Shown here: piece after piece, positions 8,492 to 50,120 of the stretch
How positions within the stretch are numbered: position 1 is the first letter of the stretch
How the letters are laid out: every line of letters begins with the position of its first letter
Source of the DNA: a virus
Lineage: Duplodnaviria; Caudoviricetes
DNA: 53,567 nucleotides
Direction: 5' to 3' (one strand)
IMG/VR virus record: IMGVR_UViG_3300032270_001137
Span: 1-53,567 of that record
Program-made: the position numbers and the translations under genes
The notes under the pieces: generated by a model
Told to the model about the DNA's origin: nothing
The model's input: only the letters and a program-made list of their open reading frames with translations
Databases searched by the model: none

Positions 8492-8492
8492 A

Positions 8493-9398: not shown

Positions 9399-9399
9399 G

Positions 9400-9981: not shown

Positions 9982-10543
9982 AAATTTTATGGAGTTTATT
10001 AACGAATCGGAGGTAGATTATAGAATCTTCTGCGACATGGACGGGGTTCTTTGTAACTTCGACAAGAAATTCAAGGAACTGAATAAAGACGGTCTATCAT
10101 TTGAAGAGTATGAGGCCAAGCACGGTAAAACCAGTGGTTGGGATATTATTAAAAACAAGGGTGAAAGTTTCTGGTCTGAATTAAGTTGGATGCCAGATGG
10201 AGGAGAACTTTGGATATATCTAAACCAAATTTCTGCGCCAACTATTTTATCATCACCTAGCCGTGAGTATAGTAGCATTAAGGGTAAAATGAAATGGATC
10301 AATGCCAATCTGGGTATTTCACAGTCTACACCTACTACAAAAAGCAAAAACTGGGATAAAACATCCCGTATTATTTTAAGCTCACATAAACATCTCTATG
10401 TTTTACCGGATCCGAATGTCAAGTCTATTCTAATAGATGACACCAAGAGTAAAATCGATAAATGGGAGGCTGCAGGTGGTATCGGTATATTACACACATC
10501 TACATCTGAGACAATTACCAGTCTTAAACGTATAATTAAATAA
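9974..10543 (+). CDS. 5'(3')-deoxyribonucleotidase-like HAD protein with leader
   Basis: IFCDMDGVLCNF, FWSEL.WMPDG, ILSSP, GK.KW, ILIDD...WEAAGGIGILH; N-term MIKNFMEFINE. Confidence 0.85.
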   Translation: MIKNFMEFINESEVDYRIFCDMDGVLCNFDKKFKELNKDGLSFEEYEAKHGKTSGWDIIKNKGESFWSELSWMPDGGELWIYLNQISAPTILSSPSREYSSIKGKMKWINANLGISQSTPTTKSKNWDKTSRIILSSHKHLYVLPDPNVKSILIDDTKSKIDKWEAAGGIGILHTSTSETITSLKRIIK

Positions 10544-10545
10544 TT

Positions 10546-11829
10546 ATGGAATATAAGAAAATAGCAACTTATGAAGCCCAAGAGGGTACCTTTGATAAAG
10601 TACTTTTGCTTTATTCAGGAGGTCTAGACACTTCAGTTATGTTGAAGTGGATTAAAGAAAAATACAACGCTGAGGTTTATGCGCTTTGTATTAACATTGG
10701 TCAAAATGAAGATTTTGAGCCAATTGTAAAAAAGGCTCTAGATCTAGGTGCAGTTAGATGTGAAGTTGTCGATGCTATAGATGATTATGCAGCCGACATT
10801 TTAAGTAATGCAATTTTGTTTAATGCAGACTATGAAGACGGTTACCACCTGTTTTGCCCACTTGGTAGAATTGCAATCGCAAAGGCTGCAGTCGAGTTTG
10901 CTAAAAGCTGGGGTATCAATGTTATAGCACACGGAGCAACAGGAAAAGGTAATGACCAGATTCGCTTTGATAACTATGTAACTACACTTGCTCCTGAAAT
11001 TAAAATCTTGGCTCCGGTTAGAGAATGGGCAATGGGAAGAGAAGAGGAAATTGAATATGCTAAAAAACATAACATTCCAGTAACTGCCAGTTTAGAAAAG
11101 ATTTATAGTTATGACGAGAACCTATGGGGTTGCTCAGCAGAAGGTGGTGAAATTGAAGACTTCAGTAAAATACCACCACTTGATCGAATTTTGAAATTTA
11201 CTAATGCTCCCGAGTCTTGTGTTGATGAGGTAGAGTATGTTGAAATAGTATTTGAACATGGCATACCAGTTTGTATTGGAGATGTTGAAGCGTATGCTCC
11301 ACTATACACGATAATTGAAGAGGCTAACACTTTAGGTAAAAGACATGGCTTAGGTATAACACATCTAATCGAAGACAGAGTAATCGGTTTAAAGGTAAGA
11401 GGTATCTATGAGGAGCCAGGTGCAGAACTTTTAATTAAAGCCCATAAAGCACTTGAGAAAGCAGTTTCAACCAGAGAGGAAATCTTGTTCAAAGAACAGG
11501 TAGATCGCCAATGGTCTCAACTGGTTTACGAAGGTCGCTACTATCACCCGTTGGTTAGTTCATTGCAATGTTTTGCAAAGTCTATGAACAATAAAGTATC
11601 AGGTGTTGTCGTAATGAGGCTTTATAAAGGTAGATGTGAAGCAGTATCGATTAGCTCAAATTATTGTTTGAATAACGAGAACTCTTCATTTATGAAAGAC
11701 GATTTTAATCAAAACGCTAGTGCAGGTTTTATCGAACATTTCGGTTACACTCAACGTATAGCATATAACTTAAACAAAAATGGCAAAAATCTGGACAAAG
11801 AGCAACCAGGAGGAGACTACGGCTGCTAA
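10546..11829 (+). CDS. argG: argininosuccinate synthase
   Basis: LYSGGLDTS, HGATGKGNDQIRF, YSYDENLWG.S.EGG, EDRVIGLK.RGIYE.PG. Confidence 0.93.
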   Translation: MEYKKIATYEAQEGTFDKVLLLYSGGLDTSVMLKWIKEKYNAEVYALCINIGQNEDFEPIVKKALDLGAVRCEVVDAIDDYAADILSNAILFNADYEDGYHLFCPLGRIAIAKAAVEFAKSWGINVIAHGATGKGNDQIRFDNYVTTLAPEIKILAPVREWAMGREEEIEYAKKHNIPVTASLEKIYSYDENLWGCSAEGGEIEDFSKIPPLDRILKFTNAPESCVDEVEYVEIVFEHGIPVCIGDVEAYAPLYTIIEEANTLGKRHGLGITHLIEDRVIGLKVRGIYEEPGAELLIKAHKALEKAVSTREEILFKEQVDRQWSQLVYEGRYYHPLVSSLQCFAKSMNNKVSGVVVMRLYKGRCEAVSISSNYCLNNENSSFMKDDFNQNASAGFIEHFGYTQRIAYNLNKNGKNLDKEQPGGDYGC

Positions 11830-13030
11830 AATCTTCTGTGACTTTACAACTGGCAATGACTATCAACTCGATGATGCCTATTTCTTAAAATATGACCTTG
11901 AGGCTAGTTGTGCCTGGGCTGAAGCCCTAGTAGAATGTGGTATCTATACTGAAGATGAGGCAAAAACTGTAGTACAGGCTTTACTTGATATCAATGAACT
12001 ACATACTGCAGGCTTATTTAGAGTTGAAAAGGACGATGAGGACGGTCACACTGCAATTGAAAATAAGTTAATCGCGCTTGTTGGAGATCTAGGTAAAAAG
12101 ATTCATACAGGTCGTAGTAGAAATGATCAGTCATTGACTATGATTCGTATGTTTATGACCGATGCCTTACGTGAAATAGACAATCTGTATACTCTACTTT
12201 CGATTAAACTGGCCAAGAAAATGACCAATGATGTTTTCATAGGTTATTCACATACCCAGCAGGCAATGCCTATCACAATAAGTCATTACTTTGGTAACTT
12301 TACTGAGGCTATAAAAGACGATTCTATGTTTTTGTCAGCTGCTTTAACCCAGATTGATAGATGCCCACTAGGAACAGGTGCCGGATTCGGTTCACCACTC
12401 AGGGTTAATAGATTAGATCTTGCCGATAAACTTGGGTTTAGAGAAGTACAAAACAATAGCCTGTATTGCCAAAACAGTCGAGGTAAATTCGAGTTAATCT
12501 ATCTAAATGCTATTACACAAATAATGCTTACACTTCAGCGCATGGCGAACGATATGGTGTTGTATACTTCTAGAGAGTACGGTCTGTTCAAGATGTCTGA
12601 TAGTCTTTCACAAGGTAGCAGTATGATGCCACAGAAAAAGAACCCTGATGTATTTGAAATGATCAGGGCCAAGACTGCAGACATATTTGCACTTGAAGAG
12701 CGTGTTAAATTTATCGTTAAAGGTTTACCTTCAGGCTATAATAGAGATCTACAAGAGATTAAAGCCTGTATCGTTGATGCCTATAATATCTCACGTAATT
12801 GTATCTACATTATGACCCTGGCCATGGACCATATTGAAGCTGACCATGGGGCAATCGCTGATAGATTACAAAAGGACATTGTAGCAGCAGACTATGCAAT
12901 CAATAAATGTGTACAGGATCCAAGTCTTAATTTTAGAGATGTATACAAAGAGTCAACTGAAAACTTACAGATGACTCCTATTGAAGCCGTTAAGCTTAGA
13001 AAGTCAAAGGGTTCTCCGTTTAACCAATAA
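11780..13030 (+). CDS. argH: argininosuccinate lyase
   Basis: HTGRSRNDQ, GYSHTQQAMP, GSSMMPQKKNPD, GYNRDLQE. Confidence 0.93.
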   Translation: MAKIWTKSNQEETTAAKIFCDFTTGNDYQLDDAYFLKYDLEASCAWAEALVECGIYTEDEAKTVVQALLDINELHTAGLFRVEKDDEDGHTAIENKLIALVGDLGKKIHTGRSRNDQSLTMIRMFMTDALREIDNLYTLLSIKLAKKMTNDVFIGYSHTQQAMPITISHYFGNFTEAIKDDSMFLSAALTQIDRCPLGTGAGFGSPLRVNRLDLADKLGFREVQNNSLYCQNSRGKFELIYLNAITQIMLTLQRMANDMVLYTSREYGLFKMSDSLSQGSSMMPQKKNPDVFEMIRAKTADIFALEERVKFIVKGLPSGYNRDLQEIKACIVDAYNISRNCIYIMTLAMDHIEADHGAIADRLQKDIVAADYAINKCVQDPSLNFRDVYKESTENLQMTPIEAVKLRKSKGSPFNQ

Positions 13031-13057
13031 TATATAGACTATAAAATAAAATTAGGA

Positions 13058-13510
13058 ATGAAATACTTTAAACTATTTGAAAACTTCGTAAACGAGGCCA
13101 AGTCTGAAGTTAAATTAAAAGATTTAGACTTAAACAAACTTGACAAGATATTTGATTTACTAACGTCTCCACTTCCGGGTTTAGAAGAAATTGGTTATGA
13201 TTCTGTATCAAATGAAGAACCAGGTTCTTTTAAGTATGTTACAAAGTTTCTTAAGAAGTTAGCTGAAGCACATGCTAAAGGAAATGATAAGTTTGTAAAT
13301 TTTATATTTAATAATGCAGATACCTTCCCGTCTGAAGTAACAGTTCAAGATAATGTTACAGATTATCTTGAGGATAAAAAGCTTGCAAAACAAATTCAAG
13401 AACTTAACGATGCTTTTTACAGCATGAATTATAATCTTTATAATGCGAATGATAAAGTTATAAGTGCATACAACAGCTTAGCAGATCTTGTTGCAAAATT
13501 TAAGATATAA
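13058..13510 (+). CDS. hypothetical protein with capsid-targeting-like leader
   Basis: MKYFKLFENFVNE. Confidence 0.75.
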   Translation: MKYFKLFENFVNEAKSEVKLKDLDLNKLDKIFDLLTSPLPGLEEIGYDSVSNEEPGSFKYVTKFLKKLAEAHAKGNDKFVNFIFNNADTFPSEVTVQDNVTDYLEDKKLAKQIQELNDAFYSMNYNLYNANDKVISAYNSLADLVAKFKI

Positions 13511-13531: not shown

Positions 13532-14584
13532 ATGAAATACTTTAAACTATTCGAACAATTCGTTACAGAGAACAATCAACCTGTAAACGAGGCTAGAGAG
13601 ATTACTAGAAGCTTTGATGGCTTTATAGTTACAGATCACGTCGCAAAAAAGAACTACAAGTTCAGATATGTTAAAGGCGTATCTGCTACTAAAACTGAAG
13701 CCGAAGCTATTGAAAAAATCGCGAAGAAAACGGGACATCCTAGTTCAGAATTTTCAATCGGTGGCTTTTTAGGTAGAAATGAATGGGATCAAACTCCTAT
13801 GGCAGTAATAGAGTCTGTAAATGAGGCTTCTAAGTTCTATACCTTAGAAGACATGATTGACGATAACAAAGGTGAAAGAGATCTACAAAAGGCTGCAGCA
13901 ATGTGTGCGGTTACTCTTGGTCTAGATCCTAAAGAAGTTGCAATCGTAACAACTGAAGATGATGTATATGACAAATATCAGTCTAAGTACAAGAGCTCTA
14001 AGTTTGCCCCATTCAATAACCCATCTGCAGACATGTCAACAGCATATGCGAAAGGTGATAACGTAATCACATTTAATGATGGTAACGTATCAGGTTTCTT
14101 TATTCCAGTTGAGTCTATGAATGAATCAGTTGTAAACGAAGCACCTACCAACCGATATCCTTCAACAACGGTAACTGCTATTGACGCAAAAAAGATGACG
14201 GCCGTTGCTAAAATAATTACAGATACTGAATTATTTCCAGAATTAGATGGCGAATCCGTATGCCCTAAATCAATGTCTGAAGTTAAAGATACTATTGATG
14301 TTATTGTAAAACTTCCTAAAGCTTTGGCAGGTGATTATGATTCGTTTGGAAAGTTTCTTGATAAAATGGCTGACAAGTACGGAGCGGATCAAGTTATCTG
14401 GATGAACGCTGAGAACGCTGATCAGATCGAGGATTCTAAACTTAACTCTGTATTTAGTGAACTTGAAGAGGCTTTAAGCGATTTAGATACTTGTTTTGCA
14501 GAGTTTGAATCTATGAACGATTTTGCAAAAGCTTATAACCGTTTAGCAAAAGCAGTTGATAAGGTTTTAGCAGCTACAAAGTAA
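13532..14584 (+). CDS. multi-segment protein with leader and internal VNE/MNE sites (putative internal head protein)
   Basis: MKYFKLFEQFVTE, PVNEA, ESVNEA, ESMNESVVNEA. Confidence 0.75.
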   Translation: MKYFKLFEQFVTENNQPVNEAREITRSFDGFIVTDHVAKKNYKFRYVKGVSATKTEAEAIEKIAKKTGHPSSEFSIGGFLGRNEWDQTPMAVIESVNEASKFYTLEDMIDDNKGERDLQKAAAMCAVTLGLDPKEVAIVTTEDDVYDKYQSKYKSSKFAPFNNPSADMSTAYAKGDNVITFNDGNVSGFFIPVESMNESVVNEAPTNRYPSTTVTAIDAKKMTAVAKIITDTELFPELDGESVCPKSMSEVKDTIDVIVKLPKALAGDYDSFGKFLDKMADKYGADQVIWMNAENADQIEDSKLNSVFSELEEALSDLDTCFAEFESMNDFAKAYNRLAKAVDKVLAATK

Positions 14585-14737
14585 ATGAAACAACTTGTCA
14601 GTAAATATAATGAGTTTATAGATAAGCTGAAAGAACCCAATTCAGAAATCCTTAAAAAGAAGCTTGTCGATAATACGGCAATGCATCAAGGAGGTAAAGG
14701 TCTTAAAGCCATATCAACCTTATCAAGCAATAAGTAA
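14585..14737 (+). CDS. small basic protein (50 aa, MKQLVSKYNEFIDKLK...), not in ORF track
   Basis: ATG abuts previous stop; ends just before terminator. Confidence 0.6.
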   Translation: MKQLVSKYNEFIDKLKEPNSEILKKKLVDNTAMHQGGKGLKAISTLSSNK

Positions 14738-14744
14738 AAGATAT

Positions 14745-14770
14745 AAAAAGCGACTTCGGTCGCTTTTTTT
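14745..14770 (+). terminator. intrinsic terminator
   Basis: AAAAAGCGAC-TTCG-GTCGCTTTTTTT. Confidence 0.9.
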
Positions 14771-14781
14771 AGTGCTTAGGG

Positions 14782-14808
14782 TAAACAATCCGCTCATTTT
14801 TAATATAA
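14782..14808 (+). promoter_or_regulatory. Putative class-II promoter TAAAC-N17-TATAA
   Basis: Directly after terminator, 5 nt before ATG 14814. Confidence 0.55.
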
Positions 14809-14813
14809 CCTAT

Positions 14814-15545
14814 ATGCTAAACGATTATTTTAACAGACTTATAGTCTTTGATATTGAAACTGCAAGTGAATGTGAATCACTTGATGCTTTGCATGATGAA
14901 AAACGACATAAAGCTGAGCTTTGGTCAAAAAGAAGTGTATGGCTTAGAAACAGGTACCCTGAAAATGCACAAATGACCGATGAAGAGTTGTATATTGATA
15001 AAGCAGCACTTCACGCAGAATTTGGTAAAATCATTTGTATCAGTATAGCCCAGATCAAAAATGATGGTGAGTCAGTAGTTATAAAAAGCTACTCAGGTCA
15101 CGATGAAAAGGCTTTGCTTACAGACTTCTTAAAGTTGAATGCCAATATCTTGGGTAAAATACCAGGAGCCATGTATTGTGGCCATAACATTAAACGTTTT
15201 GATGTCCCATTTATTGCTAAACGTTTGGCCACAAATGGTTTACCAATACCTAGTAACTTCCAGATCTTCAAAATGAAAAACTGGGAAATTCCATTCATGG
15301 ACACTGGAGATCTCTGGTCTTTTGGAGCATGGCAAGAAAGCTTTGCATCTCTAGATCTTATCTGTGAGTGTTTAGGCGTTCCGACACCAAAGGATAAAAT
15401 GGAAGGTAAAGATGTCAATACTGCATACTATGATGGCAGACTTGGAGAAATTACTGAATACTGTGAGAAAGATGTTGAGGCAACTTGTCGCGTTATCTTA
15501 AAATTAAGTCATATAGACACAAATCCATTTGTAGATAAAAAGTGA
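14814..15545 (+). CDS. DnaQ/PolB-like 3'-5' exonuclease (DEDDy)
   Basis: FDIET, GHNIKRFDVPF, YCEKDV; start moved to ATG 14814. Confidence 0.85.
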   Translation: MLNDYFNRLIVFDIETASECESLDALHDEKRHKAELWSKRSVWLRNRYPENAQMTDEELYIDKAALHAEFGKIICISIAQIKNDGESVVIKSYSGHDEKALLTDFLKLNANILGKIPGAMYCGHNIKRFDVPFIAKRLATNGLPIPSNFQIFKMKNWEIPFMDTGDLWSFGAWQESFASLDLICECLGVPTPKDKMEGKDVNTAYYDGRLGEITEYCEKDVEATCRVILKLSHIDTNPFVDKK

Positions 15546-16063
15546 AAAAACAAAAATTTACAGTAGATAACCGTATCAACGGTCAAATTAGAGCCAAGCA
15601 GGTTCGCGTAACTGGTGAGGGAATTGAGTCAAAAATCACGAGTCTAGATGATGCGCTTGCCATGGCCGGTGATATGAATTTAGACCTGGTTGAAATTGCC
15701 CCAAATGCGGTACCACCTGTTTGTAAGATTTGCGACTTCAGTAAATTCGTATATGAAAAGAAGTTGCAGGACAAGCTAAACAAAAAGAATAGAACTGAAT
15801 TAAAAGAAGTTCAGTTATCACCGGTTATCTCAGATCATGATTTAGCCACAAAGGCCAAAGCAGCATGTGGCTTCCTAGAGAAAGGCGACAAGGTTAAGGT
15901 ATCAATCTTATTCAAAGGTCGCCAGAATGCTCATAGAGAATTTGGAGGCACTATCATGCTTAAATTTATGAACTTAACTGAAGAGTTCGGCACAATTGAA
16001 AGTGAACCAAAATTCGAGGGCAATCGAATGATCGGTATGTTTAAACCGAAAAAACGTCAATAA
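15542..16063 (+). CDS. infC: translation initiation factor IF-3
   Basis: RIN.QIRA..VR, LDLVEIAPNA.PPVCKI.DF.K, HDL.TK...FL..GDKVKV...FKGR. Confidence 0.92.
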   Translation: MKKQKFTVDNRINGQIRAKQVRVTGEGIESKITSLDDALAMAGDMNLDLVEIAPNAVPPVCKICDFSKFVYEKKLQDKLNKKNRTELKEVQLSPVISDHDLATKAKAACGFLEKGDKVKVSILFKGRQNAHREFGGTIMLKFMNLTEEFGTIESEPKFEGNRMIGMFKPKKRQ

Positions 16064-19898: not shown

Positions 19899-20210
19899 AT
19901 GAAACACTTACGTACATTTGAAGTATTCATAAATGAATCTTCGTCAGACTCTCCGTCTTACTGGAAAAGTTACGAAAAAGACCATCCAATGCAAGATGAA
20001 AGTGGAGCTAAGAAAGAAACAAATATCAAAAACATCGAATCATTAGTTGATTATCGAATCAAACATTGGAAAGAAGAAGATGAATCTGGAGAAATTATTA
20101 ACGATCTTTCTATAATGAGAATCAAAGGAGAGGCTTACCGTTTCTTTAGTTCGTTTCAATATATTAACACAAACGTTATCGATGCAATGATTATGCAATT
20201 AGCTAAATAA
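19899..20210 (+). CDS. hypothetical protein with leader
   Basis: MKHLRTFEVFINE. Confidence 0.7.
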   Translation: MKHLRTFEVFINESSSDSPSYWKSYEKDHPMQDESGAKKETNIKNIESLVDYRIKHWKEEDESGEIINDLSIMRIKGEAYRFFSSFQYINTNVIDAMIMQLAK

Positions 20211-20223
20211 AAATAATCACACG

Positions 20224-20754
20224 ATGAAATACATTAAACTATTTGAAAACTTTATCAATGAAGCTAAATCTTTAAGAGTAACTATAGATGCAGATCTATG
20301 GAAATTAAAAAAGCCTATTGAGGTAAAATCTCCATATGAGTCAGATTTTAGACTTTTTTCACATCCTATAACTCAAGACCAAACCTGGGGTAACATTAAC
20401 TGGGGTGAGCCTGGATTAAATCTAGTCGTTTTACAAATCATTAAGCAGGAAAACAGCGACAAATGTTGGATAAAAATTGGCGCCGGAAAAGGATCAGGTA
20501 TGCCTAATGATGATAATACAGGTTCTATCCTCTGGTCGACTTATGGTGATAACGTTCCTGCTACCGTTGAAGAAATGAAAGCAGATCCAAAGGCTGTTGC
20601 AAAAAGAGCAGCTAGTACATTTGTTGGTGCTAAACGCGGTTTTGATATGAATTATTCAGTTGGCACTCAGCAGCAAAAAGGTATCTTTAAGATTGCCAAT
20701 GACCTAGATAAGCCTATTTTAGAGCTAATCGAATTTGCAGTAAAACATATATAA
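20224..20754 (+). CDS. hypothetical protein with leader
   Basis: MKYIKLFENFINE. Confidence 0.7.
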   Translation: MKYIKLFENFINEAKSLRVTIDADLWKLKKPIEVKSPYESDFRLFSHPITQDQTWGNINWGEPGLNLVVLQIIKQENSDKCWIKIGAGKGSGMPNDDNTGSILWSTYGDNVPATVEEMKADPKAVAKRAASTFVGAKRGFDMNYSVGTQQQKGIFKIANDLDKPILELIEFAVKHI

Positions 20755-20757
20755 ACC

Positions 20758-21654
20758 ATGAAACATTTACAAACATATGAAAACTTCTTAAATGAAGGTA
20801 AAGAACTAGAACAAGGCGTTAAATACGTTAATTCTAAAACAGATGAAGAGGGTTTTATATCAACCGGTGGTTCAACTGATCCTAAGCATTGGAAATTTCT
20901 TGTAGACATCAAGGGTAAAGGTAAAAATAGCGGAAAATACGGAGTAGAATCATATCCATATCTTGAAGTTAAAAAGGATCTTAAACCTTCTAAAGATCAA
21001 AAGGACTCTGGTTTTTCAGGTTATTTGAAAGCAGGTGGTAGAGTATGGGATAATGAAAACAGTCCATCAGGTCAAGACGTAAATGAAAAGAAAAAAGAAC
21101 TTGGTCTTTACGTTACAGGTAGAACCTCTAGTGATAATAATAAAATCGGTAAGTGGTTAGATAAGTCTGACTTTCATGCTGAATGGAATGCTAGAGATGG
21201 TTACTGGTTATTTCCAGCCGATGATGAAAGCGAGTATGACGAATTAGAAAAAGAGCTTGATAAAGAGTTTGCAAAGAATAATATCGATGCACGTTTCGAA
21301 GGTATCTTTGAATCAGCTAGTATGAACGATCCTATTTTAGTTGCATATCGTGCTGCAAAAGAGGCCAGAAAAAAATCAGCAGCAGATCAAGCTGAAATGA
21401 AGAAAAATAGAGTCTACGGTAAAAAGCGTGAAGCTCTTGAAAACCAGCTATGGAATATTGCACAAGATTTGAAAGATGCCTATGTTGATCGTCGTACTAC
21501 ATATGATGATATGGAAGCTGAAGCAGGTGAAAAAGGAAATGACTGGTCAGATAAGGATGCAAATCGTTATGGAGACATGTTGAATAAAATCGACAGTAAA
21601 ATAGAAGCACTCTTACAGAAGAGACAAGAAATTGAAATAAAATTAGCATACTAA
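20758..21654 (+). CDS. multi-segment hypothetical protein with leader
   Basis: MKHLQTYENFLNE, internal DVNE, IFES. Confidence 0.7.
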   Translation: MKHLQTYENFLNEGKELEQGVKYVNSKTDEEGFISTGGSTDPKHWKFLVDIKGKGKNSGKYGVESYPYLEVKKDLKPSKDQKDSGFSGYLKAGGRVWDNENSPSGQDVNEKKKELGLYVTGRTSSDNNKIGKWLDKSDFHAEWNARDGYWLFPADDESEYDELEKELDKEFAKNNIDARFEGIFESASMNDPILVAYRAAKEARKKSAADQAEMKKNRVYGKKREALENQLWNIAQDLKDAYVDRRTTYDDMEAEAGEKGNDWSDKDANRYGDMLNKIDSKIEALLQKRQEIEIKLAY

Positions 21655-22044: not shown

Positions 22045-22422
22045 ATGAAAATTTTAGAAAACTTACAAAAATGGGCAGGTGGCCTTTTCAAAGACGAATC
22101 AGGCACTCCATCATCAAAAAGACTAGTTGGTATTTTATGTGCTATTACTTTGTGTATTACCATGTACCATAATAGTTTCTCAACAGTTGACATTGCTCCA
22201 GCACAATATCTTGTAGACGCTGTAGCACTTTTAGCATTTAGTACATTAGGTCTATCTTCAGTTGACAAATTCGTTGCAGCTAAGAAAGATATCAACTCAG
22301 CTACATCTAGCTCCGAGCCTGTTAAACCTGTTGCTCCTGCCCCTAGTGCACCTTCAGCTCCTGTTCAAGAGTCTGGTATATGCACTAATTGCGAATGCGA
22401 GCCTTGTGTATGCAATGCTTAA
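22045..22422 (+). CDS. two-TM membrane protein (holin-like) with Pro/Ala linker and Cys-rich tail
   Basis: PSSKRLVG-TM1...TM2-SVDKF; CTNCECEPCVC. Confidence 0.55.
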   Translation: MKILENLQKWAGGLFKDESGTPSSKRLVGILCAITLCITMYHNSFSTVDIAPAQYLVDAVALLAFSTLGLSSVDKFVAAKKDINSATSSSEPVKPVAPAPSAPSAPVQESGICTNCECEPCVCNA

Positions 22423-22451
22423 ATAGGGTTATAAAAATAACATCATGTAAA

Positions 22452-23705
22452 TTGAAATCAAAACTAATCATTATAGGGTTCATAATGGCTGTTTTCTTAG
22501 CTTTGAAAACATCTGTACTACTTGATATTACACCCTCATCGCCGACTACAAGAAGTACTGAATACGTTTTATTTTTAATTACGTTGTATCTTTTATATTC
22601 ATTTATAGCACAGTATATTAAGAATGAAAGGATAAACAAAAAGCTTACTTCTAAAATCATTCAAAAGGAAAGGTCTATATCTAATAGAATGGATGCGATA
22701 AATCGCTCAAGCCCTGTAATTGAATTTGATATAGATGGGGTAATTTGTTTTGTAAACAATTCATTTTTGGATGCAATGGGGTATACATCAGATGAGATTG
22801 TAGGAAAGCATCATAGTATTTTTGTTTTTGATGATGAAAGAAATTCGCAGGAATATGTAAATTTCTGGAATAAACTAAGATCAGGTATTTATTTTAGTGG
22901 AGATATTATCAGAAAGAAAAAAGATGGTACTGAGATTTACTTAAGCGCAACATACAACCCAATCATCAATGAAAAAGGAGAAATATACCGAATACTAAAA
23001 ATAGCAAGGGATATATCTAAAATCGTTGAAAACAAAATTGAGATTGAAAAAAAGAATACGTATCTTGAACACGCTGCTAAGATTCTTAGACATGATATGC
23101 ATAGTGGCATCAATACCTATATCCCACGTGGTATTAGCTCTTTGGAAAGAAGATTAACGCTCGAGGCTATTAAAGATCTCAAGCTTGAAGCTCCATTAAA
23201 AATGTTGAAAGAGGGTTTAAAGCACACGCAAAAGGTTTATAAAGGAGTTTACGAATTTACAAATCTTGTCAAAGCGGATTCTGCATTAAATACAGAGACT
23301 TTAAACCCTAAAACCGTTCTAAGGGAATATCTAGAATCAACATCATACTCAGGTCAGGTTGTTATAGACAATTTGCCAGATTTAGAAATAAATGAATCGC
23401 TTTTTTGTACAGCAGTCGATAATTTAATCAGAAATGGTTTAAAGTATAATGACAGTGATACCAAATGGGTTAAGATCTATATGTTAGATGAAAATACAAT
23501 GGCCATTCAGGATAATGGCCGAGGTATTTCACAGGAAGATTTTGACTATCTTTCAAAACCGTATACAAGAAAAGAGGGTCAGAGGGAACCTGGCACAGGT
23601 CTGGGCCTTAATATATGCACTGCTATACTAGAAGAGCATAATTTTGAAATAAAATGTAAAAAAGCCGCTGAATGTGGTACAATAATGATGATAAAAGTAA
23701 AATGA
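22452..23705 (+). CDS. membrane PAS-domain sensor histidine kinase
   Basis: 2 TM, PAS (VIEF..DG....N..F...MGY...EIVGKHH...FW..L..G), H-box RHDMH, N-box DNLIRNGLKY, G1 DNGRG, G2 GTGLGL; start TTG 22452 inferred. Confidence 0.88.
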   Translation: MKSKLIIIGFIMAVFLALKTSVLLDITPSSPTTRSTEYVLFLITLYLLYSFIAQYIKNERINKKLTSKIIQKERSISNRMDAINRSSPVIEFDIDGVICFVNNSFLDAMGYTSDEIVGKHHSIFVFDDERNSQEYVNFWNKLRSGIYFSGDIIRKKKDGTEIYLSATYNPIINEKGEIYRILKIARDISKIVENKIEIEKKNTYLEHAAKILRHDMHSGINTYIPRGISSLERRLTLEAIKDLKLEAPLKMLKEGLKHTQKVYKGVYEFTNLVKADSALNTETLNPKTVLREYLESTSYSGQVVIDNLPDLEINESLFCTAVDNLIRNGLKYNDSDTKWVKIYMLDENTMAIQDNGRGISQEDFDYLSKPYTRKEGQREPGTGLGLNICTAILEEHNFEIKCKKAAECGTIMMIKVK

Positions 23706-24328
23706 AAAACTTAATTACAGTCTTATTTTTAATGTTTAGTCTGGTTTCCTTTTCACAGACTAACTACCCTATTAAAACAATTTTCAAGGGTGACTCTGTT
23801 ATTATTTTGACTATTCAACAGTCAGAAGATATAAACGCGGTAATTGAAAAAAATTCCAAACTGTTAAAGGAATCTAATAAAAAGATTAAGGAAAGGGATG
23901 AGCAGATTTTGAAACTTGAAAGTGTTTTATTAGAACAGAATGTCTATATTGATAGCCTGTCTAAAATTTTACTAAAACATCTTAACAGGGAAGATACAGT
24001 AAACAGTCTCATAGATAGTCTTTGGAAATGGTCTTTAGGTCCTAGTCTTATCTATACACAATATCCAGACGACAGTACAGTTTACATAATGGATCTGTCA
24101 CACCACTATATGACCACAGATGACTTTGGGATAATAATGGTTCAGATGTCAGATAGGGAATATAAAAAATATCAAGAATTTATTCAGAACTATGGTATGA
24201 GTGAACAGGCTTTCTGGGATTTTAGAAATAATATAAGGATAAAAAGATTACCAAGCGATGAGATTGACGAGAGGAGAGTTTGGAAATTTAGAAAACAATG
24301 GTCTAAACCAAAGGAGGATAAAAAATGA
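23702..24328 (+). CDS. exported coiled-coil protein
   Basis: Signal peptide MKNLITVLFLMFSLVSFS-Q; ATGA-coupled. Confidence 0.7.
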   Translation: MKNLITVLFLMFSLVSFSQTNYPIKTIFKGDSVIILTIQQSEDINAVIEKNSKLLKESNKKIKERDEQILKLESVLLEQNVYIDSLSKILLKHLNREDTVNSLIDSLWKWSLGPSLIYTQYPDDSTVYIMDLSHHYMTTDDFGIIMVQMSDREYKKYQEFIQNYGMSEQAFWDFRNNIRIKRLPSDEIDERRVWKFRKQWSKPKEDKK

Positions 24329-25638
24329 AAAAGATTTTAGTTATAGCGTTTTTGCTTTTTAGTTCATTTGTCTATTCACAAGATACAACAGATTTTTTAA
24401 TTAAACCCAATTGGGAAAATCCTGAAGTCCAAGTTGACAGCGTAGTGGCTTCATCCTTTAAACTATCTGATATATTACCAGAGAAAATAATTCCAAAATG
24501 GCTTGAGCCGGAGCCTGAAACCCCTAAAGAAGAATTGTCAGAGCAGGAGGTTAAGTTACTAGAAGGTGACATTAAGTTTATGACCGACTTACCGCAATCA
24601 TATGAGGAATTACCAAAGGAGGATTTGAAAAATGTTTTGACCCAGATTGATAATAAGATCAATCAATTAAAGACTGAGATTGCAAGGTTAATTGAACAGA
24701 GGGCAAAACAGGAAGTTATTAAGTCTAAACAGAGTACATTAACAGTACTGGAAAAAGAAAAGAGTATCATTAACTTAACATTATCGGGAGGTGAATTAAA
24801 GGATGCAAATGGAAATCTATTAGGCCAAAATGATCAATTAAAAACCGAAAGCGGTAAACTTAAAAAGTATTTGTATATTGCAGTAGGTATTGCAATTTTA
24901 CTAGGTCTTTTAACGGCAATTATTTTACAAAGAAAGAGGATCAGCGTACAGGATGTAGAAATAGAAGACCAGTTAAACGACATCAATAGAAAGAACACTT
25001 ATCTAGAACATGCTGCTAGAATTATTAGACATGATATGCATAGTGGTATCAACACCTATATGCCTAGAGGTTTAAGTTCATTAGAAAGAAGATTATCGTC
25101 TGATGACATTGAGAATTTTAAGATTGCAGCTCCTTTGAAAATGATAAAAGATGGTCTTTCTCATACACAGAGGGTTTATAAAAGTGTTTACGAGTTTACT
25201 AATCTGGTTAAAATGCATGTCGTTCTTGATAAAAGCAAAGTTGATGTTAAAGATGTACTACAGAAATATATCGATAACACATCATACAGTAACCAGGTTC
25301 AGATAGGAGATCTTATGGAGTTAGAGATAAATGAAACATTATTTTGTAACGCCATTGATAATCTTATCAGAAATGGTCTAAAATATAATGACAGCCTAGA
25401 AAAATGGGTTAAAGTATATGCTGAAGGTGATATGATTTTAATTAAAGATAATGGAAAAGGTTTAACCCGAAACCAATTTGAAAAATCGATTAAAGCGCAA
25501 CCCGAAGAAAACAGCAAAAACGAAATCGGTCTGGGACTGAGTATCTGTAATGCGATACTTAAAGAACATGGTTTTAGTTTTACATGTGAGAAATCAGAAG
25601 GCCAAGGAACTTTGATAAAGATAAATACCAAAAATTAA
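24325..25638 (+). CDS. sensor histidine kinase with signal peptide, periplasmic coiled coil and one TM
   Basis: RHDMH, DNLIRNGLKY, DNGKG, IGLGL; paralog of 22452 kinase core. Confidence 0.88.
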   Translation: MKKILVIAFLLFSSFVYSQDTTDFLIKPNWENPEVQVDSVVASSFKLSDILPEKIIPKWLEPEPETPKEELSEQEVKLLEGDIKFMTDLPQSYEELPKEDLKNVLTQIDNKINQLKTEIARLIEQRAKQEVIKSKQSTLTVLEKEKSIINLTLSGGELKDANGNLLGQNDQLKTESGKLKKYLYIAVGIAILLGLLTAIILQRKRISVQDVEIEDQLNDINRKNTYLEHAARIIRHDMHSGINTYMPRGLSSLERRLSSDDIENFKIAAPLKMIKDGLSHTQRVYKSVYEFTNLVKMHVVLDKSKVDVKDVLQKYIDNTSYSNQVQIGDLMELEINETLFCNAIDNLIRNGLKYNDSLEKWVKVYAEGDMILIKDNGKGLTRNQFEKSIKAQPEENSKNEIGLGLSICNAILKEHGFSFTCEKSEGQGTLIKINTKN

Positions 25639-25647
25639 AGGTTAAAA

Positions 25648-26085
25648 ATGATTGAATCTATATTACTAGTAGATGATGAGGATTTATTCCATCTTGTATT
25701 TGAAGATGCATGTAGTCTTCTAGATATTACATTATCACTAAATGCAGTTAACAGCTCAGATGAAGCAGAAAGGATGTTTAAGAAATGGTTCGAAACTGGT
25801 AATACAGAGGATAAACCAAAATGTGTATTTGTAGACTTAAACATCATTGGTTCTAGTTTCGACGGTATTGAGTTAATTAGAAAAGTTAACTTCGAATACG
25901 GTAACCATGTTGTAATTGGTATTATATCATCAAGTAACGAAGCAACTGAACAGGCAAAAGCAATTCAAGCTGGTGCACAATTCTGGATTGTAAAAAGTGA
26001 CGACATTGAACCTCGTCTAGAAGACTTCAGAAAAGATTATGAAGGCTATGAAAAGAGAACAGCCTCTTTCAAGGTCTATAGATAA
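25648..26085 (+). CDS. stand-alone response regulator receiver (CheY-like)
   Basis: ILLVDDE, VFVDLN (phospho-Asp), IISS, WIVK. Confidence 0.88.
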   Translation: MIESILLVDDEDLFHLVFEDACSLLDITLSLNAVNSSDEAERMFKKWFETGNTEDKPKCVFVDLNIIGSSFDGIELIRKVNFEYGNHVVIGIISSSNEATEQAKAIQAGAQFWIVKSDDIEPRLEDFRKDYEGYEKRTASFKVYR

Positions 26086-26090
26086 TCTAT

Positions 26091-26750
26091 ATGCTTACAC
26101 CAGATCAAGACACTAGGAAAGCCCTAATTAAATTAGCAGAAGAGAAAAACATTTACCTTGAAGGAAATATCATCAAGGTAATTTCTGCGGGTGATGACGA
26201 AGCATTTCAAAGGTATCTTACTGAAGCAGCAGAACGTGATAAAAGCATCCGCAGAAAGCGTTTAGAAATTACTAAACAGGTTCAGACACAGAATAATAGT
26301 CTTCTAGAAGCACAGTCCCATAATGAATCCTTAATGACAGAGCTTAAAGAAACTCTTAAAAATATGGAGGACTCAAAGACTCAGATCGAGCAACAGAATG
26401 CCGATCTAATGGCATCAAGAGAGGAAAATGAGCGAATGAATGTAGAACTCAAAGAGGCTCTAGATGCAGCAGAAGAGGCAAAAAACCACGCAGAAAACGA
26501 TCTAGATCTTTTGCAAAAGAAGACGCAATTCGAACTTATCAATCTTATAGTTAAAGTGGCCCTAATAGTAATAGCAGGTGTAGGTTTAACAACTACCGGT
26601 CTGTACATCATGGCCTTATTCATAGATAAAGATACACAGATTATAGGATCGACATGGAGTAACATGTTTGGTATCTTACTTACTAACGCCTTTAGTATCA
26701 TAGGTACTATAATGGGTGTTAAGTATGCCTCTGAAAAAACAGGCGAATAA
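26091..26750 (+). CDS. coiled-coil protein with two C-terminal TM helices
   Basis: Long heptad region then two hydrophobic segments. Confidence 0.75.
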   Translation: MLTPDQDTRKALIKLAEEKNIYLEGNIIKVISAGDDEAFQRYLTEAAERDKSIRRKRLEITKQVQTQNNSLLEAQSHNESLMTELKETLKNMEDSKTQIEQQNADLMASREENERMNVELKEALDAAEEAKNHAENDLDLLQKKTQFELINLIVKVALIVIAGVGLTTTGLYIMALFIDKDTQIIGSTWSNMFGILLTNAFSIIGTIMGVKYASEKTGE

Positions 26751-26774: not shown

Positions 26775-27119
26775 ATGGGACAGATTAAAAAATTTAACGA
26801 GTATTTTAGCAATGGTGAAAAACCTGAACAGGTTGAAGAGGCTAAGAATCAAACAATTGATATGACTTATATCATTGGTTTAGATGTAAATGAAGTAATG
26901 CAAAACCTTTACGCTAAACTCTCAAAGCAATACACTAAATCTTTTAAGGGTAAAAAACTAGAATTTATTACAGGTACAAAATCACAAGGTGAAGGTACTG
27001 TTAAAGAGGTTATAATAGAGGCAGGTAATTCATCTGCATCAAAACAACCATATACAGTTGAATTTATAACTGAAGACGGAAAGTCTTTCTATGACATAAC
27101 TCATATTGTTGAACTATAA
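26775..27119 (+). CDS. hypothetical protein with leader-like N-terminus
   Basis: MGQIKKFNEYF...VEE. Confidence 0.65.
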   Translation: MGQIKKFNEYFSNGEKPEQVEEAKNQTIDMTYIIGLDVNEVMQNLYAKLSKQYTKSFKGKKLEFITGTKSQGEGTVKEVIIEAGNSSASKQPYTVEFITEDGKSFYDITHIVEL

Positions 27120-27166: not shown

Positions 27167-27198
27167 TAAAAAAGCGAGCAATGCTCGCTTTTACTTTT
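27167..27198. terminator. bidirectional intrinsic terminator at convergence of the two transcription arms
   Basis: AAAAAAGCGAGCA-A-TGCTCGCTTTT. Confidence 0.85.
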
Positions 27199-27345: not shown

Positions 27346-28299
27346 TTATTTTTTCTTTTTGCCTTTATGTTCATCCCAGAGATCAGAATCTGCTTTTCTA
27401 GCTCCTCCTTCTCCAGTTATAAATGAATTTACTCTGCCCATTGCCCATGCTGCTTGAGGTGCGCCAGGTTTATGACCTGTTCTCCATGCTGCCATACCTC
27501 TATCATGAACTTGTTTTAATATACTGTAATTTATGCCTGTTTCATCAGACTTGTTTTTAAGAGCTGTTTCTATTTTAGAATCCTCATTGACTACTGATTC
27601 ATCCTTCTTATCGCCATACTTTTTTCTATATGCTTTAGTAGCAGGGCTTTCTTTAGTATCATGCGGTTCACCCTCTGTGTTACCACCCTTATAATCTGCA
27701 GGCCATTTATCATAAGATGATGGATCGTCAGGATCTTTTTTAGAATGCTTGTCAATTTCCTTTTTCATTAACTCACGTTCTTTCTTAGTATCTGCAGTTA
27801 AGTACTCGCCTTTAACCTTTTTACCCTTTGGGGTTTCAGACTTTTTACCTTCACCATCATCTTCTATCTTTTCTTTCTCCCAAACACCGGTCGTATGTAG
27901 AAACTCATGTTTTTCTTTAGGTCCACCATACTCAGGGCTTTTTACTTTCTTACCCTCGTCTTCTCCACCTTCTCTGGCGATCATACCTTGTGCGATTAAG
28001 CTGGTCTTAACCCCGAACGGAATCTCCTTGCCCTGTTCATACTCCTTTTTATACATAAGAAGTGTTTCACGAGAATATGGTGACTTCTTTTCATTTAACA
28101 TTGAGGCATTCAACACCTCTCTGTATTGTTCAAGTGTTAAAATGTTTTCCATGTTTTCAGTTTTGGATTTGTTTATATTACCGCACTTATGGCAAGTATA
28201 GGGATCATCACCAGCATCATCTTTAGCCCATGACCATTTGCATTTATCGCAAACTATCGTATCACCGACAATGCTTTCAGTTTTGAAATTGTGCCCCAT
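27346..28299 (-). CDS. hypothetical virion-type protein; N-terminal Zn-ribbon, C-terminal DUF5824-like domain
   Basis: CDKC..CHKC; internal MENILTLEQY..MLNE, VVNE; RGMAAW.TGH.PGA....WAMGRVNSF..AD.DL. Confidence 0.65.
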   Translation of the reverse strand: MGHNFKTESIVGDTIVCDKCKWSWAKDDAGDDPYTCHKCGNINKSKTENMENILTLEQYREVLNASMLNEKKSPYSRETLLMYKKEYEQGKEIPFGVKTSLIAQGMIAREGGEDEGKKVKSPEYGGPKEKHEFLHTTGVWEKEKIEDDGEGKKSETPKGKKVKGEYLTADTKKERELMKKEIDKHSKKDPDDPSSYDKWPADYKGGNTEGEPHDTKESPATKAYRKKYGDKKDESVVNEDSKIETALKNKSDETGINYSILKQVHDRGMAAWRTGHKPGAPQAAWAMGRVNSFITGEGGARKADSDLWDEHKGKKKK

Positions 28300-28450: not shown

Positions 28451-29299
28451 TTACTTTAGATATGACCAATATTCTTTGAAATGTTTAATACGATCTGCCA
28501 AACCAATCGTTCCGCCGTTTACTCTTTTAGTAACTTTAGAAACTGTGGCCTCATCTGAACCTAAATCACAGATAGACCAAAGATTATTACTGTTAAAGAA
28601 AAATGCTGCAGAAGCAAGTGGGTATTTACTGGCCACTAGGTCTGGATTTGATATGATGTTGTCATCAACAAAACTATCAAATTTGGAATAGTTAGACTTG
28701 CCTGTTAATTGAATATAACCACGACCTCTAAACTTCCAGCCTTCACCAGACGCCTCATCACCGTTACCCATTCTTGAAGAGTAAACACGATTTGCAATCT
28801 TTTCTGGGTTACGAGCATATGAAGCTCCAGTTTCGCCAGGGAAATATTTAGGGAAAATTCTTTTAAGACCGTCAGCAGAATAGTTTAGATTTTCATTAAC
28901 TACTTTGAAGTTACCACTTTCATGTGAACACTGAGCTAAAAAGTGAGCTAATCTTAAGTTACTGGTGATATTAAATCTTGCAGCAGTCTCTGGAATCTGA
29001 GCTAAAACAGCATCTGGAACATGTCCTTTTAATTTATCGAGATTAAGACCTGTTGCAACTGGTGCACTAACTGGTGCACTAACTGGTGCACTAGATATTT
29101 CAACTGGTGCATTAGTTTCTGGAAACATTCTTGCCCATGTTCCATTACCAACAATCCCATCTGCAGTTAAGCCATTAGCAGCCTGCCATTCTTTTACTTT
29201 TGATTGAGTACCAGGTCCGAAAATACCGTCTGCGGTTAAACCTAATTTCTCTTGGAGTTTCTTAACGTCTTCTCCTGATGAACCAACTTTTAATAACAT
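28451..29299 (-). CDS. endolysin: peptidoglycan-binding domain + glycoside hydrolase family 19
   Basis: GSSGEDVKKLQ..L...DGIFGPGT...WQ..NGL.ADGIVG; HFLAQCSHESG, ENLNYS, FRGRGYIQLTG..NY, RVNGG..GLADR. Confidence 0.92.
   Translation of the reverse strand: MLLKVGSSGEDVKKLQEKLGLTADGIFGPGTQSKVKEWQAANGLTADGIVGNGTWARMFPETNAPVEISSAPVSAPVSAPVATGLNLDKLKGHVPDAVLAQIPETAARFNITSNLRLAHFLAQCSHESGNFKVVNENLNYSADGLKRIFPKYFPGETGASYARNPEKIANRVYSSRMGNGDEASGEGWKFRGRGYIQLTGKSNYSKFDSFVDDNIISNPDLVASKYPLASAAFFFNSNNLWSICDLGSDEATVSKVTKRVNGGTIGLADRIKHFKEYWSYLK
29057..29092. repeat. 3 x 12-bp tandem repeat encoding endolysin SAPV linker
   Basis: AACTGGTGCACT x3. Confidence 0.9.
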
Positions 29300-29314: not shown

Positions 29315-29746
29315 TTATATACTCTCATTTTCAAGCCAAGTTAATATCTTTTTCTTAATTTTAACCTGTTTGCCCTGTTTTTCTAGTCTTTTTGTATATC
29401 GATCGACATGCATTTGCACGTTCTGTTTAGCACCCTGTACATAGATTTCAAATTCTGCTTTATAGTCAATGTGCATTTCACATTTCTTAAGGAATTTTAT
29501 AGTCCAGAGTTCTGTGTCATATTCACAGATATGGTCTAGTACATCGTCTTCATGTCCTAGGATAATATGAGCTATTTCATGTATTGCAGTACCTGCAGAC
29601 TGGAAGTCAACTATTCTTGGAATTTTAATTACCCTGTCTTGTACCCAGGCTCTGCCTACAGGTGATTTGAACTTCTTTCTTGTAACACGGATCCCATGTT
29701 CTTTTATCATGTCTTTTATAACATCCTTTAATTGACTTAAGTGCAT
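29315..29746 (-). CDS. HExxH metallopeptidase-like protein
   Basis: IHEIAHIILGH...E. Confidence 0.6.
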   Translation of the reverse strand: MHLSQLKDVIKDMIKEHGIRVTRKKFKSPVGRAWVQDRVIKIPRIVDFQSAGTAIHEIAHIILGHEDDVLDHICEYDTELWTIKFLKKCEMHIDYKAEFEIYVQGAKQNVQMHVDRYTKRLEKQGKQVKIKKKILTWLENESI

Positions 29747-44655: not shown

Positions 44656-44668
44656 AATTTATAATATG

Positions 44669-44742
44669 TGCGCCTACTAGGGCTCGAACCTAGGACCCGC
44701 AGATTATGAGTCTGCTGCTCTAACCAACTGAGCTATAAGCGC
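44669..44742 (-). tRNA. tRNA with CAT anticodon (probably Ile2, possibly Met)
   Basis: Full cloverleaf GCGCTTA..AGCTCAGTTGGTTAGAGC..GCAGA-CTCATAA-TCTGC..GGTTCGAGCC..TAGGCGC-A. Confidence 0.88.
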
Positions 44743-44748
44743 TATTTG

Positions 44749-44838
44749 CCGTCAGGACAGGATTCGAACCTGTATATCTGCCAATTTACGTTGTTTAGGT
44801 TCATACCTTACAGTGCGTTACCATTCCACCACCTGACT
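44749..44838 (-). ncRNA. tRNA-scaffold RNA copy A (41-nt insert replaces anticodon arm)
   Basis: AGTCAGG-TGGTGGAATGGTAACGC-[41 nt]-ACAGGTTCGAATCCTGT-CCTGACG. Confidence 0.7.
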
Positions 44839-44843
44839 ATTTG

Positions 44844-49804: not shown

Positions 49805-49818
49805 ATTTATTTGTTTTG

Positions 49819-50107: not shown

Positions 50108-50120
50108 TTTTTCCAATTTG

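Follow-up and report, generated by a model that had tools for sequence, protein, structure and literature searches.

A compact run of genes in the viral record IMGVR_UViG_3300032270_001137 of IMG/VR would encode a phosphorelay owned by the phage, whose output is proposed to be a membrane protein rather than a transcription factor, and which would govern the time at which the host is lysed. To this whole chain, lysis timing included, we give a probability of about 0.5. The record, a stretch of 53,567 bases that we call the window, had been the subject of an earlier note, written from its letters alone, which described six tightly packed open reading frames (ORFs) on the + strand at 22045-26750. 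All six are present:

22045..22422, + strand: A, 125 amino acids, with hydrophobic segments at 27-45 and 50-68 and a tail rich in Pro, Ala and Cys
22389, 22395 or 22410..23705, + strand: HK1, membrane-anchored PAS histidine kinase with two transmembrane segments (TMs), showing PAS_9, HATPase_c and hydrophobic segments
23672 (likelier start 23702)..24328, + strand: C, exported accessory protein with a signal-peptide-like N-terminus and a coiled coil or long helix
24325..25638, + strand: HK2, histidine kinase with a signal-like N-terminus, a TM at 183-201 and HATPase_c
25648..26085, + strand: RR, stand-alone receiver of 145 amino acids, Response_reg and no further domain
26091..26750, + strand: F, the proposed output, with an N-domain, a coiled coil and TMs at 149-167 and 192-210

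In the chain that we propose, HK1 would read a cytoplasmic cue, probably the redox or energy state, through a PAS domain of the flavin type, and HK2, probably together with the exported protein C, would read a cue from the periplasm or the envelope. Both kinases would phosphorylate the single receiver RR, which in its phosphorylated form would dock onto the small N-terminal domain of F, and the change would pass along the coiled-coil helix of F to its two-helix membrane hairpin. The hairpin would then act in the lysis pathway as an antiholin-like or a holin-triggering element and would set the burst time of the host. We infer the phosphotransfer, the contact between RR and F, the action of the hairpin, the sign of its effect (delay or trigger) and both cues; a superinfection cue like that of T4 is a guess.

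The catalytic domains of the two kinases look intact. HATPase_c scores 56.8 bits in HK1 (3.7e-15) and 44.9 bits in HK2 (1.8e-11) against a Pfam cut-off of 26.4, and the N box (NLIRNGLKYN), the G1 box (DNGKG) and the G2 box (GLGLS) of HK2 are conserved across 20 homologues, which together give the signature of a GHKL catalytic domain. Their cores are 56% identical over 221 amino acids (E 9e-85) and have in common the motif KNTYLEHAA.I.RHDMHSGINTY.PRG.SSLERRL, on which their earlier description as paralogues had been based; the H-box lacks the proline at H+5, also as described, and has Gly there. Because these paralogues have a near-identical, proline-less H-box, they probably both serve the single receiver, which is what the earlier note had supposed. 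Among 20 homologues of HK2 the segment R235-Y245 is invariant, and the HK2 profile aligns to HK853 (3dge) from helix 2 of the dimerization and histidine phosphotransfer (DHp) domain through the catalytic domain, with E 2.1e-9. The alignment takes in the DHp domain only from helix 2; H236, which lies about 33 residues ahead of that helix and at the position of the HK853 His, would occupy the place expected of the phospho-acceptor.

HK1 had been read as a protein with one TM, a PAS domain and a kinase; the PAS domain (PAS_9, 52.7 bits, 5.8e-14, above the Pfam cut-off) and the kinase are there, but the single TM is replaced by two N-terminal hydrophobic segments. Its start is uncertain (TTG at 22389, ATG at 22395 or ATG at 22410), and the gene overlaps the 3' end of A. 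Among solved structures the PAS domains nearest to that of HK1 are those of MmoS (3ewk, 1.9e-11) and NifL (2gj3, 8.1e-10), followed by LOV domains and Aer (8dik, 1.7e-7), and the site of the LOV cysteine reads GKHHSIF, without a cysteine. A redox or energy cue, taken up through a flavin-type PAS domain, is plausible because this domain is closest to the flavin sensors MmoS and NifL and has no LOV cysteine. HK2 is laid out as a putative periplasmic domain of about 160 amino acids with a coiled coil, one TM, and then the DHp and catalytic domains, with neither HAMP nor PAS; its periplasmic domain, with a majority-residue fraction of 0.79, matches no Pfam family.

The exported protein C may belong to this second input. 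In 22 homologues aligned, the motif YPI.T..KGDSV is conserved, and the predicted model has a beta hairpin, a 75-residue helix and a small beta domain, at a predicted local distance difference test score (pLDDT) of 74.1. No fold in the PDB matches this model at E 0.001, and scans of Pfam, PHROG, NCBIfam and PADLOC gave no family for the protein. C is found in 22 of the 40 dereplicated loci described below, in 19 of them at position -2, that is, between the kinases and directly upstream of the one that precedes RR, the other three being at -3, -3 and +1.

RR scores 33.7 bits with Response_reg (Pfam cut-off 30.2) and has the acidic pair, the phospho-Asp, the Ser and the Lys of a CheY-like receiver: D9, D10, D63, S94 and K116 are invariant in 37 sequences, as the earlier note would lead one to expect from a receiver in which all of these were recognised, and so is the pair F112-W113. 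Mean column identity is 84% and the majority-residue fraction 0.87. The protein is a receiver and nothing else over its 145 amino acids, and the absence of a DNA-binding output domain holds. With HATPase_c, PAS and Response_reg all above their Pfam cut-offs and the catalytic residues invariant, the two-component set borne by this phage is complete and looks intact, as had been claimed.

What takes the place of a DNA-binding domain would be F. Its predicted model (pLDDT 85.3) has one helix from 37 to 177, which runs into TM1, and another from 183 to 216, which is TM2, with a short outer loop between them. Conservation along F is uneven: the N-domain has a majority-residue fraction of 0.67, the coil one of 0.64 and TM1 one of 0.73, whereas TM2 reaches 0.93, and its sequence, WSNMFGILLTNAFSI.GTIMGVKY, is the most conserved stretch of the module (the kinases, RR and F, with C where it occurs); such conservation fits a specific membrane job rather than that of a mere anchor. 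The length of the coil varies, with 32-residue deletions among homologues. F belongs to no family of Pfam, PHROG, NCBIfam or PADLOC and has only 266 relatives among 1.84 billion representatives; its fold retrieved from BFVD only its own uncharacterised family, with one hit at E 0.001 or better, and in the Atlas search the neighbours of the hairpin were all unnamed viral clusters.

Two kinds of evidence tie F to the receiver, namely gene order and the exchange of domains. F is the gene directly following RR in 34/34 of the dereplicated loci, and in 79 of 80 further loci, whose map was read by eye, RR precedes F by no more than two genes. Eleven relatives of F are longer, and in ten of these two PAS domains, which by eye resemble the PAS domain of HK1, replace the N-domain and are followed by the coil and the same hairpin; another protein (P0268) has the form GAF-coil-hairpin. 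PAS-hairpin proteins are encoded by 211 stretches of IMG/VR, and within the flanks fetched around their genes (at most 6 kb per side) a kinase or a receiver was found in 0/44 dereplicated loci. The N-domain of F, in turn, also heads soluble kinases of the HisKA type that have an ordinary SHNLRGP H-box and HisKA scores slightly below the Pfam cut-off. This fusion was seen in none of 72 ORFs with the N-domain in viral contigs and in one of 80 metagenome loci (L323), in which a member of the RR family, 66% identical, lies directly upstream. The N-domain thus goes with the receiver irrespective of its own fusion partner, and sensors can be joined straight to the hairpin, both of which fit a path from phosphorylated RR to the N-domain, the coil and the hairpin.

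A complex of RR with residues 1-148 of F, a check that the earlier note had proposed, was predicted at a score of 0.51 (runs at 0.51, 0.53 and 0.01), the best control reaching 0.00; the pLDDT of the partner was at least 85 and the runs had at least 14% of their contacts in common. The mark applied to such predictions is passed by 58 of 80 solved complexes and by 2 of 110 mismatched pairs, and scores of 0.60 or below were obtained for only 7 of those 80 solved complexes and for both mismatches. This lends the contact between RR and F(1-148) weak support. Taking gene order, domain exchange and this model together, we regard F as the likely output of the relay.

The module is conserved in other viral contigs. 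We fetched 79 viral loci, which with the window make 80 clustered sources and, once dereplicated, 40 loci. At a tblastn threshold of 1e-5 the 79 loci contain RR in 74, HK2 in 70, F in 69, HK1 in 67, C in 46, the endolysin of the window in 39 and A in 2, and the same gene order recurs in them far beyond chance. Among the 40 dereplicated loci a kinase is present in all, RR in 36, F in 34, C in 22 and a GH19 endolysin in 21, the latter anywhere from -6 to +6 and on either strand; every family outside the module and the endolysin is found in at most 9/40 loci, and the flanks are shuffled. Variants have one kinase (HK-RR-F) or two kinases without C, and the 80 further loci, obtained with the hairpin as query, likewise have HK-RR-F, their kinases measuring 277-718 amino acids. 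The core is, by this comparison, a kinase, the receiver and F, and the window carries the two-kinase form with C.

Some neighbours of the module, and some candidates for further forms of F, deserve mention in their own right. In a few of the related loci an additional ORF (fam70, 155-240 amino acids; L003:3579-4046 and L014) stands between HK2 and RR and abounds in repeated SEESK-type motifs, which may be akin to the NUMOD repeats of homing endonucleases. With this agrees the tail of P0358, which joins the N-terminal part of F to an I-TevI-like DNA-binding region; this protein is single, as is P0330, a metagenome protein of 348 amino acids in which the N-domain, the coil and the start of TM1 of F run into a FecCD permease (7e-49), and we set both aside as probable chimeras or read-throughs. 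Nor do we claim a free, stand-alone form of the hairpin: the 295 short hits (30-119 amino acids) are indistinguishable from truncated gene calls and contig ends, and in the 80 viral loci nearest to one short hairpin hit 78 F ORFs measure 181-228 amino acids. A few genes from the module in L014 lie a full-length DnaK/Hsp70-like gene of 620 amino acids (14083-15945, recognised by eye) and a class II aminoacyl-tRNA-synthetase-like gene (12595-13446; tRNA-synt_2, 3.3e-13).

The module is essentially viral, because 450 viral stretches stand against 4 loci in the genomes of 185,579 species. A pattern built on the kinase motif matched 502 stretches of IMG/VR, of which those 450 encode a relative of HK2, and the hairpin pattern matched 474 stretches; the holders are mostly contigs from metagenomes, of which some reach 200-385 kb, and among 20 runs listed none was an RNA holder. 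Among 8000 candidates scored from metagenome proteins, 5152 are relatives of HK2 at E 0.001, the best 120 of which share 60% identity or more across at least 94% of the length, and some of which come from contigs of 150-303 kb. When viral contigs were scanned with HK2 or P0393 as a single protein there was no match, but alignment queries did find loci. Against the 50,697 records of GenBank phages, blastn with the cluster gave no match, tblastn with HK2 gave four weak hits to the catalytic domain at a coverage of at most 24% and tblastn with RR gave none, so that the module has no cultured relative in that collection.

In prokaryotes, searched with one genome per species, three of the four loci with the same motifs are short contigs of metagenome-assembled genomes (MAGs) with the phage-type order, HK-RR-F in L082 and L084 and HK-RR up to the contig end in L083. 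The fourth, L085, is the sole truly chromosomal locus found and belongs to a Bacteroidetes MAG, where it lies at about 0.5 Mb on a contig of 967 kb. It contains (7754-11154) a multi-PAS kinase, in ORFs of 515 and 425 amino acids that are perhaps one gene, and a stand-alone receiver 63% identical to RR, with no F; its neighbours are genes for alanine dehydrogenase, TauE, cytochrome c, TetR and an ABC1 kinase. The RR family was found in 1/401 genomes of that phylum (E 1e-20), the L085 genome itself, and in 1/61 genomes comprising the MAG and its relatives (E 1e-15), again L085 alone. This locus may mark a transfer from phage to host and gives a hint to the host phylum. A mainly chromosomal occurrence without lysis genes, named beforehand as the result that would speak against a role in lysis, was looked for and not found, the distribution being overwhelmingly viral and enriched beside lysis genes. 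That the phosphorelay is real and specific to phages is, in our judgement, very probable.

The link to lysis rests on gene neighbourhood. In the window the neighbouring features are these:

28451..29299, - strand: endolysin with PG_binding_1 (53, cut-off 23) and GH19 (Glyco_hydro_19, 30.2, cut-off 25.5)
27170..27192, + strand: terminator-like hairpin, a 10-pair stem followed by a T run, between convergent + and - gene blocks

The endolysin, which combines GH19 with a cell-wall-binding domain and matches phrog_181 at E 9.5e-66, is the third gene after F and convergent with it. The earlier note had placed it about 1.7 kb further on; the distance from F is right, but the gene lies on the opposite strand beyond the terminator and is not co-transcribed with the cluster. 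At the other end A directly precedes HK1. It had been called holin-like, and the two hydrophobic segments and the presence of its family (fam36) in lysis cassettes elsewhere agree with this, but neither A nor its relative L048:12276-12518 matches a holin in Pfam, PHROG or NCBIfam. A also has no PADLOC family, and its nearest clusters in the Atlas search are viral and unnamed. The family occurs in 8/80 clustered sources and, in PAS-hairpin loci, between the hairpin gene and the endolysin (L098-L100, for example), as a small TM protein beside the lysis enzyme, and in other loci close to the module; A itself is 6 kb from the endolysin of the window. We therefore keep A as a candidate holin-like or lysis-cassette membrane protein.

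In relatives the neighbourhood is clearer. The endolysin family lies within 10 kb of the module in 39 of the 79 related loci, and around the module and the PAS-hairpin genes three lysin types, namely GH19, Amidase_2 (fam94) and an endolysin-like type (fam6, which matches phrog_3000 and, more weakly, an endolysin PHROG at E 9.2e-12), alternate by lineage together with a holin-like family (fam26, with Phage_holin_4_1 at 19.5 bits, below the cut-off of 22.2, and the holin phrog_199 at E 1.4e-4). Counting GH19, amidase, fam26, fam6 and fam36 as lysis-type families, and taking near as within three genes and far as beyond three, we obtained:

Module loci, enzymes only (GH19, amidase): within three genes in 22/40 loci, adjacent in 15; near 22/199 vs far 2/570, Fisher p 8e-12
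Module loci, five families: within three genes in 24/40 loci, adjacent in 18; near 36/199 vs far 6/570, Fisher p 7e-17
PAS-hairpin loci, enzymes only: within three genes in 28/44 loci, adjacent in 13; near 28/254 vs far 1/419, Fisher p 1e-11
PAS-hairpin loci, five families: within three genes in 38/44 loci, adjacent in 18; near 53/254 vs far 5/419, Fisher p 6e-19

Typical runs read hairpin, A family, endolysin, holin-like (L098, L100), or amidase, holin-like, HK, RR, F (L185, L190, L243). The functions of fam26, fam6 and fam36 in lysis are themselves putative. As an aside on one of these families, the lysin-like domain of fam6, about 200 amino acids long, recurs in L025 (18283-21290) at the C-terminal end of two neighbouring proteins (534 and 468 amino acids), which are possibly virion-associated cell-wall hydrolases.

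On this evidence the balance tips slightly towards a module that controls the timing of lysis, and within that reading F would sooner be a regulator, whether like an antiholin or as a trigger, than the only holin of the phage. The membrane circuit timing lysis that was first suggested from the sequence gains from the viral distribution and the enrichment of lysis genes, but its output has had to be refined to F and its endolysin sits on the other strand. We would go further, more tentatively: these phages may have an undescribed 'inside-out' signalling device, in which cytoplasmic sensors, either fused to the hairpin (PAS or GAF) or wired to it through kinase and receiver, act on it by way of the long coiled-coil helix, so that a virulent jumbo phage could time its burst by the redox or energy state of the host and by a signal from the envelope. 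The hairpin would in that case be a gated lysis regulator of a new class, a phospho-controlled antiholin or a depolarising trigger of the holin.

Several observations weigh against the chain as we propose it. On the side of signalling, neither HK1 nor HK2 matches Pfam HisKA at E 0.1, and the phospho-acceptor role of H236 for that reason rests on alignment and invariance; one of the three runs of the RR-F model scored 0.01; and the locus with the N-domain-kinase fusion is a single contig of 1 kb. On the side of lysis, Pfam and PHROG relate neither F nor A to a holin or antiholin family, nor does BFVD for F by fold. The endolysin of the window, being on the opposite strand and behind a terminator, is not co-transcribed with the cluster. 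The loci come from related phages, and the Fisher p-values therefore overstate their independence; among the 24 module loci that extend by at least three genes to both sides, only 13 have a lysis-type gene within that range. F occurs together with holin-like genes and is therefore not the sole holin, and TM2 is near-invariant across lineages with different lysins and holin-like genes, which a conserved host membrane target or self-assembly would explain as well as a holin partner from the phage.

These last points lead to the explanation that survives best beside lysis timing, in which the relay and its output F are real but the hairpin governs another membrane process, such as superinfection exclusion, respiration or proton-motive force, transport or envelope remodelling, and the nearness of lysis genes means no more than that membrane or late genes are grouped in one block. 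No recognised lysis gene lies within three genes in about half of the module loci with full flanks, small membrane-protein families (fam5, fam10, fam15, fam16) also neighbour the module, TM2 hardly changes whatever lysins or holin-like genes accompany it, as for a conserved host membrane target, and a PAS input of the redox type would suit a control of respiration or energy. A shared block of this kind does not account well for the endolysin being alone, outside the module, in exceeding 9/40 loci, for an enrichment that persists when only enzyme genes are counted (p 8e-12 and 1e-11) and extends across three unrelated lysin types, or for the sensor-hairpin fusions lying within compact runs of hairpin, A family, endolysin and holin-like genes. 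We consider this explanation rather improbable, and less so than the two that follow.

It is unlikely, to a greater degree, that the main target of RR is a host protein, through which the phage would hijack a host pathway, and that F serves as a scaffold, a phosphate sink or a regulator of the kinases. The idea draws on the conservation of RR, which is the most conserved protein (84%; 0.87) when the cytoplasmic part of F reaches 0.64-0.67, on the Bacteroidetes MAG chromosome, where a multi-PAS kinase is accompanied by a receiver 63% identical to RR but by no F, and on the N-domain heading kinases, which could make of it a regulatory input that feeds back on signalling. It is opposed by the position of F, always directly after RR, by the sensor-hairpin fusions without RR, in which the hairpin appears as the common output element, and by the search of 400 genomes of the phylum and 60 relatives of the MAG, where the RR family was not found and no widespread host pathway is evident. 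A third reading would make the module a passenger with no role in the phage cycle, either a moron of host origin or bacterial DNA misbinned as viral. In its favour, two-component genes are typically bacterial, the ten large ORFs of the window that were scanned include no recognisable virion genes and 50,697 GenBank phage records hold no relative. It is close to refuted, since the record is classed as viral and has, besides its endolysin, six tRNAs and matches to a family of T4 RnlA-like RNA ligases and to a clamp-loader-like family, the module occurs in 450 viral stretches vs 4 loci in 185,579 species genomes, and its order and sequence are strongly conserved across shuffled contexts.

The phage identity of the window is supported by the GH19 endolysin, by PHROG matches, among them the T4 RnlA-type RNA ligase family, the clamp-loader-like family and others, and by the six tRNA genes. 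The record has no end repeats and CheckV puts its completeness at about 20%, for which reason it is probably a fragment of a larger genome, of roughly 250 kb, that belongs to an uncultured jumbo phage. G+C is 32-40%. Long ORFs are all on the + strand from about 24 to 27119 and all on the - strand from 27346 onward, and the + run ends with a gene that is not conserved with the module:

26775..27119, + strand: G, ORF of 114 amino acids, last gene of the + strand run, a singleton in the clustering

Scans of Pfam, PHROG, NCBIfam and PADLOC gave no family for G, and PADLOC defence models gave 0 families for proteins A-G as a whole. Regulatory signals in the window are not enriched: the motif TATAAATA, which we take to be the T4 late-promoter motif, occurs 5 times vs 7.07 expected; a sigma-70 promoter scan found 33 sites vs 34.6 expected and is uninformative; and the terminator scan found 2 sites overall, fewer than the shuffle mean of 4.4.

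Other genes of the window lie outside the subject proper. The tRNA genes are on the - strand in two clusters, 44668-44921 and 49818-50325, in the order Met-CAT, His-ATG, Leu-TAG, then Arg-CCG, Ala-TGC, Leu-TAA; the His-ATG call, of 91 nt, looks unusual and might be an error of the prediction or a gene with an intron. Upstream of the cluster, several consecutive paralogue-like ORFs (20224-21654 and 19899-20210) open with the common motif MK(H/Y)(L/I)(R/K/Q)(T/L)(F/Y)E.F(I/L)NE, which suggests a family of small paralogous genes. Beside the endolysin, an ORF at 29315-29746 (- strand) has an HEIAH motif and is metallopeptidase-like as far as its sequence goes, and after the endolysin a 317-amino-acid ORF at 27346-28299 (- strand) ends in DUF5824 (1.2e-13) and shows the pattern CxxC...CxxC in its N-terminal part.

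Burst size and the fitness of the phage are decided by when lysis occurs, and the known means of adjusting it, the lysis inhibition of T4 and ICP1 and antiholins of the S107 type, use direct protein binding. If our proposal is true, virulent phages would have a further layer of regulation, new to them, in a complete two-input phosphorelay of their own that ends on a dedicated membrane protein, and this would also be a type of two-component output that is not known from bacteria. The module is no rarity, since hundreds of IMG/VR stretches match the hairpin pattern or the kinase motif, and its fused and relay versions constitute a natural experiment that makes the idea directly testable. The hairpin and the N-domain would also be candidate parts for synthetic switches from signal to membrane. 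The main texts of the literature searched contained no phage-encoded kinase-receiver set in or beside lysis genes, and the passages available from a survey of jumbo phages mention only a divergent receiver, never linked to histidine kinases (PMC7824862).

At the input, the nearest known systems are the flavin PAS sensors MmoS, NifL and Aer, whose domains are the closest to that of HK1 among solved structures; here the PAS domain, which may bind a flavin, forms part of a phage kinase or, in other phages, is joined straight to the hairpin. In tying a two-component system to holin-like membrane proteins (Cid/Lrg) and lysis, the module would resemble LytSR/LytST of Firmicutes (PMC2996381, PMC3507848), and a lysis cassette with a PhoB-like regulator is reported for Yersinia entomophaga (PMC10101115). 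These systems are bacterial and act on transcription through DNA-binding regulators, whereas the receiver of the module has no output domain and its link to lysis would be post-translational; F is also unrelated to LrgA/CidA as far as Pfam shows.

In its effect the module would be closest to the lysis inhibition of T4, with holin T and antiholins RI and RIII, and to TeaA/ArrA of ICP1 (PMC11413866, PMC8385771, PMC7182436). The likeness is that sensing is encoded by the phage and would tune lysis, and that one periplasmic and one cytoplasmic input would act on membrane lysis proteins. T4 does this by direct binding of antiholins, with no kinase, receiver or phosphate, whereas for the module a phosphorelay is proposed. 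A general PHROG scan, with no search aimed at T, RI or RIII, matched no protein of the cluster to lysis PHROGs besides the endolysin.

In its architecture, finally, the module falls in with the systems of class I (HisKA-type) kinases and single-domain receivers whose output is a contact between proteins, such as CheA-CheY, DivJ/PleC-DivK and Spo0F. Among solved structures of this class it resembles HK853-RR468 of Thermotoga (3DGE), in which DHp helix 2 and the catalytic domain align as reported above and a single-domain receiver has no DNA-binding output. The module differs from that class in being encoded by phages and in an H-box, RHDMHSGINTY, that has G at H+5 and is missed by Pfam HisKA. 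Unlike them also, its two kinases, with inputs from different compartments, would converge on one receiver, and the target proposed for that receiver is a dedicated membrane hairpin protein.

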